Below, piece after piece: positions 19,990 to 62,252 of a DNA stretch of 64,000 bases. The position numbers and the translations under genes are program-made. Below the pieces are notes generated by a model. That model was not told the origin of the DNA. It made no database searches and saw only the letters and a program-made list of their open reading frames with translations. Position 1 is the first letter of the stretch. Every line of letters begins with the position of its first letter. This DNA comes from Candidatus Nomurabacteria bacterium (GTDB taxonomy: Bacteria; Patescibacteriota; Minisyncoccia; Phycocordibacterales; UBA5272), in NCBI GenBank assembly GCA_029288775.1, contig JARIGQ010000001.1, positions 29,044 to 93,043 on the forward strand. The letters are read 5' to 3'.

Positions 19990-20630
19990 TATGAGCACTG
20001 TTAATGATGAAGAACACGAAAATTACTAGCTAAAAACCGCAGGCAAGTGACGTTTCGTTACGCGCCCGCCGGTAAGGCGGATTTTCTTTTCTAAAAATTG
20101 TTACAGGGGAGGTTCGTTGACAATAGAATCCCGTGCACAACACGCGCAACAATACTGTTATCCAGTAGTAGTAATATTCACTGGGGTCTAGCGGAGTTTG
20201 TAGTACGGGGAACATGAAAGATAATCAATGCACAAGTAGCTTGTAAACCTGCTTGTGCAGCACGCACATAACAATGGAGCGGTCCGGAGTTATGTGGTAG
20301 TTATGTTTCCTAATAGGAACATAAGAGCATACGGTGGATGCCTAGGCTCTAACAAGCGATGAAAGACGTGATCAGGCGGCGATACGCTTCGGGGAGGTGC
20401 CTAATAACCTTCGATCCGGAGATTTCTGAATGGGGAAACCTCATACGAGTAATGTTGTATGGTCTTAGAGAGCATTCTCAAGACGCGCACCCAGGGAAGT
20501 GAAACATCTCAGTACCTGGAGGAAAAGAAAACAAAAGTTATTCTGCAAGTAGCGGCGAGCGAAAACAGAGAAGCCCAAACCAGCACACCACTTTGCTTTC
20601 AATTGATATCGTTCATGTATGTTTATAAGG

Positions 20631-20987
20631 GGAAAAAAGTTCTTTGCCCGCCTACCAAGGCGTGCACATATCCGATTCATCGGATATGGCGGGTCTCAAT
20701 TAGGGAAGCAGCCATGAGGTGAGCCTCTGTGAGACCGAATGAGATACCAGAGGTTGACGTACGCTTGTTGGTGACGTTGACCGGAGCGCCCGAAAGCGCA
20801 AGCTAACGGGAACAACGCACACGAAATCTCTCGTGTGCGTTGACAATGCCGTAAGGCTTCAAGGTGCTGACAAAAATGCCTTACGGAAGCTGGCCAGGCT
20901 GTGAACGATCGCATCGGCTTGGTTGGAAGGTGAGAGGCCGCAGGAACCCCCGCTCTTTAAAGTTTTGCCGATTATAAATCGGCTCTC
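20631..20987 (+). other. Structured insertion of about 357 nt in 23S domain I, closed by a roughly 50-bp imperfect inverted repeat (20581-20630 with 20988-21048); IVS-like
   Basis: Flanks CAGCACACCACTTTGC...ATGTATGTTTATAAGG and CCTTATAAACATACAT...GCAAAGTGGTGTGCTGG are reverse complements. No counterpart in E. coli 23S helices 9-10. Confidence 0.6.
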
Positions 20988-21251
20988 CTTATAAACATAC
21001 ATGAACGAATACGATATCAATTGAATTGAAGGCAAAGTGGTGTGCTGGGGTAGTAAGACAGAAACGTAGATTTCTAGAAGAGTTACAAAAGGTAAATATA
21101 GACTAAGTTGTTGGAAAGCAACGCCACAGAAAGTGATAGCCTTGTAGTCGAAATATTTATCTCTCTTTTGTTTCTGATCTTGAGTAGTTCGAGACACGAA
21201 TAGCTCGGATGAATCAGCCGGAACTAACCGGTAAGGCTAAATATTGTTAGA

Positions 21252-21297
<46 letters not shown>

Positions 21298-22772
21298 GGA
21301 AGGGGAGTGAAATAGAACTGAAACCGTATGTTTACAAAGAGTAGAAGAGGTATTTATACCTCGACTGCGTGCCTATTGAAGAATGAGCCAACGAGTTGTA
21401 GGTTACTGCAGGCTAAGTGGTATAAAGTCACGGAGCCATAGCGAAAGCAAGTGTTAATAGCGCGAACCAATTGTAGTAGCTTACAGACCCGAAGCCGGAT
21501 GAGCTTACCATGAGCAGGGTGAAGCAGTGCGAAAGCACTGTGGAGGCCCGAACCAGTAGGTTGTACGACTCCTTTGGATGACTTGTGGTAAGGAGTGAAA
21601 AGCTAATCGAATTCGGTAATAGCTGGTTCTCTCCGAAATAGTTTTTGGACTAGCGTCATGTGTTCCCTTTGGGGGTAGAGCACTGGAAGGTTTTGACTAG
21701 TAGAAATACGGCAACACCTATCAAACTCCGAATACCAAAGGTTAAAAACATGGCAGTAAGACCACGGGGGCGAAGCTCCGTCGGTCAAAAGGGAAACAGC
21801 CCAGATCTCAAGTTAAGGTCCCTAAGTATAGATTAAGTGTATAGCGAGGAGGTGGAGTTTCATTGACAATGAGGATGTTGGCTTAGAAGCAGCCATCATT
21901 GAAAGAAAGCGTAACAGCTCACCCATCGAGAGACTCTGCGCCGTAAATGATCGGGACTAAAATCTATCACCGAAACTGAGGGCTTCCTATTTATAGGGAG
22001 CGGTAGGAGAGTGTTCCACTCTGCGCTGAAGCGGAAGGGGTAACCCACCGTGGAGCGTGTGGAAGTACGAATGTTGGCACAAGTAACCGCAAGGAAGGTG
22101 AGATCCCTTCCCGCCGAAAGAATAAGGTTTCCTTTGCAATGATTGTCAGCGAAGGGTTAGTCGGGCCTAAGGAGATGGCAAACGCCGGATCCGATGGACA
22201 TAAGGTTAATATTCCTTAACTTGGTAGTAATGTGATGGGATGACGGGGTGTAGTATGTAAAGCGTCTTATTGGATTGACGTTTATTGTGTAAGTGGCTTG
22301 TGTAGGGAAATCCGCACGAGTATACCGCAAGCACCGTATGAAGGTGAGGGGCAACCCGAGCCAATTTTACAAAGCACGCCTCCGAGAAAAGTCTCTACAT
22401 TCTGTGAATACAGAACGTCTTCTTGTGCCTTTTACTAGGTACGAGCTTGCTTGTATCTAGATCATCTAGGTACAAGAAGATGCTTAAGTTACTATTAATC
22501 CGTACCGCAAACCGACACAGGTATTCGAGTCGAGTAGACTAAGGCGAACGAGTGATATCTCCCTAAGGAACTAGGCAAAAAAGCGATCGTAAGTTAGCGA
22601 TAAGATCTGCCCATAGCAATATGGGCCGCAGCGAAAGTTTCCCTAGCGACTGTTTACCAAAAACACAGCTTCCTGCGAACACGTAAGTGGATGTATAGGA
22701 GGTGACGCCTGACCAATGCGGGAAGGTCAAATATCGGCGGTGCTTCGGTGCTGGATGATATAAGCCCCCGTC

Positions 22773-22804
<32 letters not shown>

Positions 22805-23018
22805 TCTGATCATATCTATGATGTGGTCAGAACGGACTAGGACGGTTATAGGGAATTTGGTTTAAATAAAGTAAAAACAGTCTAATTGTGTACGCTTCAT
22901 AAAGCTACCTGTTGCATCGAAATATGCATTCAGTCCAATGTGATTAACGAGAGACCAACGTCACACATCTGACCATTAGGTTGAAGATGAAGATAGAGTC
23001 CAACTTGAGGAATAGTTG
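22805..23018 (+). other. Group-I-type intron in 23S at the E. coli U1917 site (214 nt)
   Basis: Interrupts the universal GGUCCUAAGGU|AGCGAAAUUCC. 5' exon ends in U and the insert ends in G. P7-like R/S elements GGACUAG and AAGAUAGAGUCC. P9 hairpin CAACU-tgaggaau-AGUUG before the terminal G. P1/IGS pairing was not found. Confidence 0.55.
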
Positions 23019-23588
23019 AGCGAAATTCCTTGTCTGGTAAGTTCAGACGTGCACGAATGGCGTAACGACTGGGGAACTGTCTCAGGGAGTAGCTCGGTGA
23101 AAATACAGTGGGGGTGAAGATGCCCCCTAGCTGCAGATAGACGAAAAGACCCCGTGAGCTTTACTCTAGCTTGGTATTGCAAGTGTTCAATTACTGCGTA
23201 GTGTAGTGGTGAGAGGTTGAAGGTATGATTTCGGTTGTACTGGACTCGTCGATGAAACAGCCATCTGTAATTGGGCACTTGCTAACGTGAACGGAAAAAA
23301 CGTTCGCAGACAGTATCTGGTGGGGAGTTTAACTGGGGCGGTTTCCTCCCAAAAGGTAACGGAGGAGTATATTAAGGTCATCTAGGCGCGAATGGAAACC
23401 GTGCCGATAGCGCAAGGGCATAAGATGGCTTGACTGTGAGACGGGCATGTCGAGCAGACGCGAAAGCGGGTCCTAGTGAACCTACTCTTGGCTTTAGACG
23501 CCGGAGCAGATTAACGGATAGAAGCTACCACGGGGATAACAGGCTAGTTGTGCCTAAGAGTTCATATCGACGGCACAGTTCGGCACCT

Positions 23589-23942
23589 TAACTTTAATCG
23601 GGGTGCGTCAGGAGCAATCCTGTAGCAACACATGTACAATCGTCAAATAAATAATATGTACACAAGAAATCTTGGCTTATAACGGTGAAACCCTTATGCA
23701 TGAACACCATAAGGGCAATACCGTGGGAAGTTTATATGTAAGAAAGCGATCACTCCAATTGTATTGGAGAGCTGCACACCTCAAAATGTGATTACATGTA
23801 TAACCTCGTAGAGACTTGTCACGCATGTGACGGAGTTGTGGTTCAAAGAAGATAAACCATAGCTAATACGCCAACGCCGCCTTTGATCGGGCGGATGAAG
23901 ATATAGTCCGATCCTTCCAGTAATGGAAGACAAATACGACAG
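23589..23942 (+). other. Group I intron in the 23S peptidyl-transferase region near E. coli 2500 (354 nt)
   Basis: Interrupts GGCACCU|CGAUGUCGG. IGS GGGUGC (23601-23606) pairs with exon GCACCU, with U.G at the splice site. S element AAGAUAUAGUCC is an exact consensus match. R-like AGAGACUUG. P9 hairpin CUUCCA-guaa-UGGAAG. Terminal G. Confidence 0.7.
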
Positions 23943-24088
23943 CGATGTCGGCTCATCTTATCCTGGTGGTGGAGAAGCTACCAAGGGTTTGGCTGTTCGC
24001 CAATTAAAAAGATACGTGAGCTGGGTTCAAACCGTCGTGAGACAGGTTGGTTTCCTATCTTCTGCAGCCGTTCGAATATTGAGAAGAT

Positions 24089-24119
<31 letters not shown>

Positions 24120-24474
24120 TGACCTCTGGTGTGTGGGCTCTAGCGCCAGCTGGACCGCCCAGTAGCTATGTCGGGAATGGATAACCTCTGAAAGCATCTA
24201 AGAGGGAAGCCAACTTCAAGATAAGTATTCGTTGAGGGTCGTAAGAGATGATTACGTTGATAGGATCTAAGTGTACGCACAGTAATGTGTTTAGCTGAGG
24301 ATTACTAATTACCCGAATCCTATTAGGAAACATGATTATCACAAATAATCATCGTGCATCTTTCATGTGGTGAGAGGAGGTTGAAGAGTCTGATACCAGC
24401 AATGGTCGCTTACAATTTGGCTTCCTCTCACCACGTGAAGATTTGGTTCTTTCATGTTGTGAACGATATATGAT

Positions 24475-24650
24475 GGGGATGTAGCTCAGTTGGTAGAGCG
24501 TTTCCCTGGGGGTTGGGTGTCAACGCCCGACTTGTCTCCCAGCTAGTTGCCGAGTACAAAAGGCTTAGGCAAAAGGACTGCCGCCGACGAGGTGGAGGAA
24601 GGGGGAGAGCAGGGGGAAGGTCGCAGGTTCAAATCCTGCCATCTCCACCA
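24475..24650 (+). tRNA. tRNA-like gene (probable tRNA-Pro, anticodon GGG) interrupted by a roughly 100-nt insert in the anticodon loop; CCA encoded
   Basis: Acceptor GGGGATG pairs with CATCTCC. Canonical D-arm GCTC-AGTTGGTA-GAGC. T-arm GCAGG-TTCAAAT-CCTGC. Anticodon stem TTTCC pairs with GGGAA only across about 101 nt (about 24512-24612). Confidence 0.45.
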
Positions 24651-61954: not shown

Positions 61955-62252
61955 TATATGTCTTTGTCTGTAAGCCGAATTCTGTTTTTGTGTAGACATG
62001 TATCTTGTCCCGCCATTGCTGTCGAGATCTAGCGACACTCCTTAGTATTGCTAATAAGGCACGGTCTTGCACACGCGTATGTATTTAGCCGTTTCAGCCG
62101 GACTGAACCGGATCGTTTCTGTTCGCAACACGGTGGTCACCCACGACGGGCGTTACCCGCTACGTTTCCACAGTGAAGTGGTGTGTGTTCGGACTTTCCT
62201 CACCGTTTCCGGCGCGTCTACCCAACAAAGAACTTTTTTAGTATACCATATA

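Follow-up and report, generated by a model that had tools for sequence, protein, structure and literature searches.

The 23S rRNA gene in a 64,000-nucleotide stretch of Candidatus Nomurabacteria bacterium DNA (GenBank assembly GCA_029288775.1, contig JARIGQ010000001.1, positions 29,044 to 93,043; hereafter the window) is interrupted in its peptidyl-transferase loop by a 354-nt insert. This insert is very probably a structurally complete group I intron of IA-like architecture, without an open reading frame (ORF), located between U2500 and C2501 (Escherichia coli numbering, by alignment to rrlH). The reading draws on the site and sequence of the insert, on a secondary structure with covariation, on homology to a family of introns at the same site, and on the lack of an ORF. 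A preliminary sequence-only reading had proposed a group I intron near position 2500, and the exact site, the P1 and P10 helices, the full core, the covariation and the same-site homology all bear that proposal out. The host is a Nomurabacteria-like bacterium of the Candidate Phyla Radiation (CPR, or Patescibacteria).

Insertion site

Base U23588 of the window is E. coli U2500, the U of the 5' splice site, and in a MAFFT alignment to rrlH the insert falls exactly between it and C2501, two bases before A2503. The upstream exon GGCACCU occupies 23582-23588, and the downstream exon starts CGAUGUCGG at 23943. Alignment to the Rfam large subunit (LSU) rRNA model gives the same placement: model positions 2481-2522 end at base 23584, position 2527 restarts at base 23943, and bases 23585-23588 account for positions 2523-2526, so that the site lies at model 2526/2527. 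Because model positions are contiguous across the insert, taking out the 354 nt gives an unbroken peptidyl-transferase loop. In-silico removal had been suggested in advance as a check, and it leaves continuity exact, with positions 2523-2526 filled. Any computation of the mature 23S of this organism has to leave out 23589-23942. The gene as a whole is 4017 nt long against a model of 2925 positions, which corresponds to about 1.1 kb of insertions.

Recognition as a group I intron

The Rfam group I model RF00028 matches 23579-23930 over its full length (model 1-253) at 43.7 bits, with an E-value of 5.6e-10 when searched locally and 8e-8 over the whole window. Surveys of CPR introns have used E <= 1e-4 as their criterion (PMC11270868, PMC13011429), a value that the window intron passes. 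In the RF00028 alignment P1, P2, P4, P5, P6 and P9 are paired and the J8/7-P7' stretch fits perfectly, while some 200 nt of the intron are taken as insertions.

A search with a same-site profile gives a stronger result. The nhmmer profile was built from 11 non-orthologous ORF-less introns found at position 2500 of LSU rRNA (L2500), leaving out the window intron, its orthologues L046 and L023, and the exon columns. It has a single match in the window, at 23591-23942, with E 1.7e-47. The window intron agrees with 118 of the 121 columns conserved in at least 10 of the 11 profile relatives; two of the three deviating columns lie in P6 and P8, where the pairs are kept, and the third in the unpaired tail after P9. 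Given this agreement, the intron core looks intact.

Helix-by-helix architecture

Helices were placed by hand and then checked against relatives (Table 1). P2 to P9 follow one another in the canonical order, with P3 and P7 interlocked as a pseudoknot. The internal guide sequence serves both exons: GGGUGC (23601-23606) pairs with the end of the 5' exon to form P1, with a U23588.G23601 wobble that is U.G in 14 of 14 relatives, and the abutting AUCG (23597-23600) forms P10 with the first bases of the 3' exon, 100% of cells being paired across 14 sequences. Inside P4, J4/5 is AAA and J5/4 is CAA. The R element GUAGAGACU lies at 23808-23816, and the R-like AGAGACUUG picked out from sequence occupies 23810-23818. 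P7 consists of G23811-C23909, a bulged A23812, and the pairing of 23813-23816 with 23905-23908. The G23813-C23908 pair, which adjoins the bulge and is invariant in the 14 sequences, is the predicted guanosine-binding site. The S element AAGAUAUAGUCC at 23898-23909 matches the Rfam consensus exactly and is the sole exact copy in the 64 kb.

All motifs named in the sequence-only reading (GGCACCU, GGGUGC, AAGAUAUAGUCC, AGAGACUUG, the P9 hairpin and the terminal G) are where it had placed them. P10 and P3, absent from its list, are present in the intron as well.

The hairpins P7.1 and P7.2, a mark of subgroup IA, follow the 5' strand of P7 and precede the 3' strand of P3, and for this reason the intron is called IA-like. 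The closing stem of P7.1 is kept in orthologues, as GUCAU/AUGAC in L125, and L046 and L023 carry an extra inner hairpin. P7.2 shows compensatory changes, to AUGGA/UCCAU in L046 and UAUGA/UCAUA in L023. These changes were read by eye, as MAFFT misaligns the stretch. By analogy of architecture, P7.1 and P7.2 may brace the guanosine pocket, and the GNRA loops L2 and L9 may dock on helices.

Two candidate pairings were dropped along the way. An initial guess for P3, UUGGCU/AGCUAA, gave way to UUGGC/GCCAA, which the alignment shows to covary, and a GGAU/GUCC helix drawn by RNAalifold at the P7 3' strand was left out of the model as the by-product of a method unable to draw pseudoknots. A second helix from RNAalifold is an observation in its own right: the intron end and 3' exon (23937-23950, + strand) can form the hairpin CGACA-GCGA-UGUCG, with the terminal guanosine (omega-G) as the first base of its GNRA-like loop. 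This hairpin and P10 are rivals for U23946. The hairpin does not vary in the subfamily of introns ending ...GACAG, so that covariation cannot test it, and it was left out of the full model.

Table 1. Coordinates of the 23S rRNA gene, the intron and its structural elements in the window (MFE, minimum free energy).
Feature	Coordinates	Strand	Basis
Bacterial 23S rRNA host gene	20311-24327	+	RF02541, 2209.6 bits, model 1-2925
P1 5' exon strand, GCACCU	23583-23588	+	Sequence; pairs invariant in 14/14 relatives
Intron, 354 nt, ORF-less	23589-23942	+	Sequence, Rfam alignment, rrlH alignment, ORF scan, profile match
Internal guide sequence, AUCG-GGGUGC	23597-23606	+	Helices 98.8-100% paired
P2 hairpin, CAGGA-GCAA-UCCUG (23609-13 / 23618-22)	23609-23622	+	4/5 pairs compensated; loop GNRA in 14/14
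P2.1 hairpin, UGUACA/UGUACA, 18-nt loop (23633-38 / 23657-62)	23633-23662	+	MFE fold; 2 compensatory pairs in orthologues
P3 5' strand, UUGGC	23672-23676	+	Pairs with 23870-23874; 3/5 pairs covary, 100% paired
P4, ACGGUG/UACCGU (23682-87 / 23719-24), enclosing P5	23682-23724	+	RNAalifold, covariation, inverted repeat
P5, CCCUUAUG / CAUAAGGG	23691-98 / 23708-15	+	RNAalifold, covariation, inverted repeat
P6, GGG/CCU[C] (23725-27 / 23805-07), with lineage-specific extension	23725-23807	+	MFE fold, covariation
P6a (P6 extension)	23730-23741 / 23792-23804	+	Covariation in orthologues
P6b (P6 extension)	23753-23759 / 23763-23769	+	Covariation in orthologues
P6c (P6 extension)	23775-23778 / 23787-23790	+	
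J6/7 (GUA) and P7 5' strand, G-[A]-GACU (R element)	23808-23816	+	100% paired; outer pair compensated in L110
P7.1 hairpin, GUCAC-GCAU-GUGAC (23818-22 / 23827-31)	23818-23831	+	MFE fold, orthologues
P7.2 hairpin, GUGGUU...AACCAU (23838-43 / 23855-60)	23838-23860	+	MFE fold, orthologues
P3 3' strand, GCCAA	23870-23874	+	Forms P3/P7 pseudoknot
P8 hairpin, CCGCC...GGCGG (23877-81 / 23890-94)	23877-23894	+	Covariation analysis
J8/7 and P7 3' strand, AUGAAGAUAUAGUCC	23895-23909	+	Rfam alignment, pairing
P9 hairpin, CUUCCA-GUAA-UGGAAG (23914-19 / 23924-29), L9 = GNRA	23914-23929	+	4/6 pairs covary, 100% paired
Terminal guanosine (omega-G), 3' splice site	23942	+	Directly before C2501; invariant in ...ACAG subfamily
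P10 3' exon strand, CGAU = E. coli C2501-U2504	23943-23946	+	Sequence, rrlH alignment, helix pairing

Relatives at position 2500 and covariation

A scan of one genome per species, looking for a group I S element 16-46 nt upstream of CGAUGUCGGCU (C2501), finds at least 120 species-representative genomes with such an element at the L2500 site, non-CPR phyla included. Among the matches listed, 46 of 80 titles name CPR/Patescibacteria lineages, and other hosts are Gammaproteobacteria, a Coxiella endosymbiont, Omnitrophota, Actinomycetes, Planctomycetes and others. The 103 introns that could be delimited include size classes of roughly 230-500 nt (61 introns) and 700 nt or more (39 introns). BLAST yields full-length orthologues in L046, a Ca. 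Nomurabacteria metagenome-assembled genome (83% identity), and L023, a Ca. Yonathbacteria genome (80%), while other metagenomes (L122-L126) supply four complete orthologue copies and one cut by a contig end.

The covariation alignment consists of the window intron and 13 ORF-less relatives. Unaided, RNAalifold recovers P1, P2, P3, P4, P5, P6 and P9 from it. With the full model, including the P7 pseudoknot and P10, 96.8% of 782 cells hold standard pairs, as against 37-41% in controls whose 3' partners were slid by 1-3 columns. Changes on both sides are seen in 23 of 56 pairs, and none of 500 shuffles reaches any of five measures. P2, P3, P5, P6 and P9 covary richly, and changes in the stems of P2 and P9 leave L2 and L9 as GNRA loops. 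In four distinct orthologues, compensatory changes are also found in P2.1, P6a and P6b, the P6-extension helices accounting for 5 + 3 such pairs.

Variation at the 3' end of these introns is a separate observation. Before CGAUGUCGG, 37 of the 103 delimited introns end in A (...GUA or ...AUA) and not in the canonical terminal G, among them L002, L010, L012, L013, L014, L015, L025, L028, L033, L035 and L037. Their P1/P10 guide sequence is normal, and the P7 strand UAGUC is retained. A published precedent is the lack of omega-G in a 23S intron of Coxiella (Raghavan et al. 2007, as listed among the references of PMC11270868); the frequency of about one third at L2500 seems notable.

Several points weigh against the reading as a complete, IA-like, self-sufficient intron. 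At 43.7 bits, the RF00028 match falls short of the curated gathering score (50), and a default gathering-threshold Rfam scan of the window gives no group I match. The cmsearch check proposed beforehand is positive by E-value but does not reach the gathering score. RF00028 also leaves P3 and the P7 5' strand unpaired and aligns P8 poorly. We would attribute the shortfall to the long P6 extension and to P7.1/P7.2, which are counted as insertions; this is our own interpretation. P1, P4, P7 and P10 are nearly invariant, which fits the model but stops short of proof by covariation; near-invariance is expected of helices tied to fixed exon sequence or to catalysis. The label IA-like is an architectural statement, made from the presence of P7.1/P7.2 and not from subgroup-specific models, and four same-site relatives have no P7.1/P7.2 at all. 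Finally, it is from architecture that we infer splicing at this locus, its rate and its independence of protein, and the same holds for catalysis and autonomy. One practical consequence follows from the low score: since a gathering-threshold scan misses the intron, automated pipelines leave it inside the rRNA.

Missing endonuclease and P6 extension

On neither strand is the insert overlapped by an ORF of more than 50 aa. ORF-bearing relatives at the same site (about 800-900 nt) carry in the P6 loop an ORF of 190-225 aa encoding a LAGLIDADG_2 protein (PF03161, E 1e-34 to 1e-41). When 39 such LAGLIDADG_2 proteins are searched by tblastn against the window intron, only the start of the ORF, where it overlaps the core, is matched, with no trace of the ORF body. 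The claim of the sequence-only reading that no homing-endonuclease ORF is present thus stands. A 39-aa ORF in the window (23672-23791) does start like the relatives' proteins (MAYNGET...GNTVGSL) and then diverges at once, a resemblance explained by the overlap of the LAGLIDADG_2 ORF start with the ribozyme core.

In the relatives this overlap occurs at both ends of the ORF (L001, L011, L038, L070, L117 and others). The N-terminal ...MDNTVGSL..., including NTVGS, is encoded by AAUACCGUGGGAAGU, which is also P4'/P6, and the C-terminal ...PVET... by CCCGUAGAGACU, which is also P6'/J6/7/P7. With the reading frame running into the core, RNA and protein constraints fall on the same bases.

The place of the ORF is taken in the window lineage by an RNA three-way junction of about 75 nt (23730-23804), whose arms covary. 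This junction is RNA structure under selection, not the remains of a gene; an endonuclease pseudogene in the P6 extension was considered and rejected, as tblastn matches only the core-overlapping ORF start and the domain covaries as RNA. The junction is common to Nomurabacteria-like and Yonathbacteria-like genomes, with only about 85% identity between their 23S exons. A trans-acting LAGLIDADG gene was also considered, and the same 39 proteins find no homologue elsewhere in the 64-kb window. With no endonuclease gene, the intron cannot home by itself.

Splicing and alternative explanations

Of the possible readings, the standard two-step group I pathway has the best support, its steps being predicted from the architecture. 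The guide sequence would hold the 5' exon in P1 and later the 3' exon in P10. Free guanosine would dock at G23813-C23908 of P7 and attack the bond after U23588, after which the terminal G23942 would occupy the same P7 pocket. The freed 3'-OH of U23588 would then attack the bond after G23942, joining GGCACCU to CGAUGUCGG and restoring the peptidyl-transferase loop. U2500 and C2501 lie in the central loop of domain V, adjoining A2503-U2506, where a retained insert or a chain break should inactivate the ribosome. The location is a strong argument that the exons must be ligated.

It is common for IA introns to need peripheral elements or proteins, and a more restrained view would hold that this intron is group I by descent only, its endonuclease or maturase gene lost, so that it needs a host protein or one encoded in trans in vivo. 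The LAGLIDADG_2 ORF in the P6 loop of relatives gives this view some substance, as such proteins can act as maturases (PMC11270868). It nevertheless appears unlikely, given that the window holds no LAGLIDADG homologue, that all core positions are conserved, and that the P6 extension is a covarying RNA domain with the look of RNA-based stabilization. Moreover, ORF-less group I introns from Patescibacteria, those of tRNA genes, have self-spliced in vitro (PMC13011429).

That the insert is not spliced with ligation at all, being either kept in mature 23S or cut out by an RNase III-type activity that leaves the 23S fragmented, we regard as very improbable. On established knowledge, a ribosome whose peptidyl-transferase central loop is broken or holds such an insert should not function. 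Both exons are lined up for ligation by the guide sequence, and the ends of the insert do not pair with each other, P4-P5 being the sole inverted repeat found in it. An RNase III intervening sequence is not supported, given this lack of a terminal inverted repeat and the site, a universally conserved loop and not a variable helix. The same 23S gene does hold an insert resembling an intervening sequence (20580-21048), and a 23S group I intron that stays unspliced has been reported, to go by the citation in PMC11270868, for Simkania L1931 (Everett et al. 1999). The same intron at the same site in the independent assemblies L046 and L023, with exon and intron divergence scaling together, makes it scarcely credible that a foreign intron was joined into the rRNA gene during metagenome assembly. 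Conserved rRNA genes are indeed prone to mis-assembly from metagenomes. Further copies of the intron come, though, from other metagenomes (L122-L126), and its guide sequence matches the exact insertion site.

Inheritance and possible role

Downstream of position 1931, the 23S exons of the window are 94.9% identical to those of L046 and 84.5% identical to those of L023, and the introns are 83% and 80% identical. As intron divergence tracks exon divergence and no endonuclease is present, the intron appears to have been inherited vertically in this lineage. An endonuclease-free intron might persist in this way by being useful to its host, with the P6 domain replacing a maturase, or with guanosine-dependent splicing acting as a checkpoint that ties large-subunit maturation to nucleotide state in reduced genomes; we offer the idea with little confidence. 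The authors of PMC13011429 have speculated along such lines about splicing as a checkpoint on nucleotide state.

Other insertions and nearby features

The 23S gene has four insertions, and only the one at position 2500 is a solid group I intron. The sequence-only reading had counted two self-splicing-type introns in the gene, which is roughly right but needs adjusting to these four insertions. A 214-nt insert lies at 22805-23018 (+), after E. coli 1931, the classic L1931 intron site. The exon before the insert ends in U, the insert ends in G and contains the S-like GAAGAUAGAGUCC, and RF00028 matches it weakly (19.7 bits, E 0.005 locally). Its fold recurs in three relatives, each about 200 nt long (in L046, L038 and L099), with compensatory changes in 21 of 49 predicted pairs. 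Its P1 looks atypical, exon GUCCUA pairing 4 nt upstream of the splice site. The insert is probably a miniaturized group I-type intron.

An insert of about 450 nt in domain I (20580-21048, +), at Rfam model position ~283, is closed by a near-continuous stem of about 54 bp (20580-20633 with 20984-21048). A global MAFFT alignment put it at the extreme 5' end of the gene; that placement was dropped in favor of the Rfam alignment and the inverted repeats. Its interior forms many hairpins, with an MFE of -229 kcal/mol against -139 kcal/mol for shuffles (z = -16). It contains no credible ORF, matches no Rfam family (RF00028 included) at E <= 1, and has no counterpart in L046. In appearance it is an intervening sequence of the RNase III type with a large structured RNA inside. 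The fourth insert, of 83 nt, lies at 22397-22479 (+), after E. coli 1578.

A tRNA gene in the 23S-5S spacer (24475-24650, +) has an intact cloverleaf and encodes its CCA; a G3.U70 pair marks alanine identity. About 100 nt of 59% G+C split the anticodon loop (CUGG-...-CAG, giving anticodon GGC, with the boundary ambiguous between 34/35 and 35/36). The Rfam tRNA model matches with 52 bits over 173 nt, and ARAGORN misses the gene. The tRNA insert gives no RF00028 match at E <= 1, and seems too short for a canonical group I intron. L046, the 95%-identical relative, has no tRNA in its 23S-5S spacer. It also carries about 156 nt extra near E. coli 1727-1747 (its locus ~2267-2423, -) that are missing in the window (22612-22623). 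The differences between the window and L046 in the domain-I insert, the spacer tRNA and this extra segment indicate that rRNA insertions turn over fast despite 95%-identical exons.

Rfam finds no small subunit rRNA match in the window, and there is no 16S gene within 20 kb upstream of the 23S (window 1-20310), so the 23S-tRNA-5S unit appears to be unlinked from the 16S gene. The genes around the 23S are ordinary bacterial chromosomal ones (L,D-transpeptidase, FtsW/RodA, glycosyltransferases). An RNase P RNA of bacterial type A at 61955-62233 (-) is a reduced form, 279 nt long against a model of 367 positions, and scores 103.4 bits against a gathering score of 100.

Comparison with known introns

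Group I "insertion sequences" in the rRNA genes of CPR/Patescibacteria were reportedly described by Brown and colleagues in 2015. The closest comparison is with the CPR rRNA introns surveyed by Tsurumaki et al. (J Bacteriol 2024, PMC11270868). Among 968 insertions in 348 CPR 23S genes, they classified 433 as group I (222 ORF-less, 211 ORF-bearing), recurring at sites 23IS6-14 around the peptidyl-transferase center, and found ORF-less and LAGLIDADG-bearing versions at the same sites, highly similar outside the ORF. The window intron shares with that set its host clade, host gene, clustering in the domain V peptidyl-transferase region and the presence of several insertions per gene, with no substantive difference. 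About 40% of Patescibacteria genomes have group I introns, and those in tRNA genes are nearly all IA, some of them self-splicing in vitro (PMC13011429). The remark in the sequence-only reading that such introns are a hallmark of CPR rRNA genes matches this literature (PMC11270868, PMC13011429).

The main text of PMC11270868 names sites 1917, 1931, 1952, 2593, 2604 and 2657 and gives no coordinates for 23IS9-11. We did not find position 2500 named as an intron site in PMC11270868 (text and one supplement), in PMC13011429 or in the literature searched. It is presumably one of the sites left unnumbered in PMC11270868 between 1952 and 2593. In organellar LSU rRNA, 2500 may be a catalogued intron site.

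The ORF-bearing L2500 introns (L011, L070, L117, L038, L001) share with the window intron the site, the guide sequence, the P3-P9 core and the ...GACAG 3' end, and differ in having the LAGLIDADG_2 ORF where the window intron has its RNA junction. Other bacterial 23S group I introns, as given in PMC1995217 and in the reference list of PMC11270868, are Thermotoga L1931, Coxiella burnetii Cbu.L1917 and Cbu.L1951, Simkania L1931, and Synechococcus L1917/L1931/L2593. Like the window intron they occupy conserved sites in domains IV/V, more than one per gene being possible, and some have P7.1/P7.2 (PMC1995217). Their insertion sites differ from 2500. The IA ribozymes of phage Twort (orf142-I2) and T4 (td) likewise place P7.1 and P7.2 between the P7 5' and P3 3' strands, and the Twort pair braces the guanosine pocket (PMC1995217); these ribozymes differ from the window intron in host gene and in peripheral elements (P2.1, P6a-c). 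Similarity to phage DNA was looked into and set aside: the matches, in T7-like DNA-polymerase genes, extend over no more than about 35 nt of the universal J8/7-P7 core.

The finding opens no new question. It contributes a single well-resolved case, modeled helix by helix and with covariation, to the documented abundance of group I introns around the peptidyl-transferase center of CPR 23S rRNA. The window intron fits the documented picture of CPR introns in every respect, and its kind is already known to be common.

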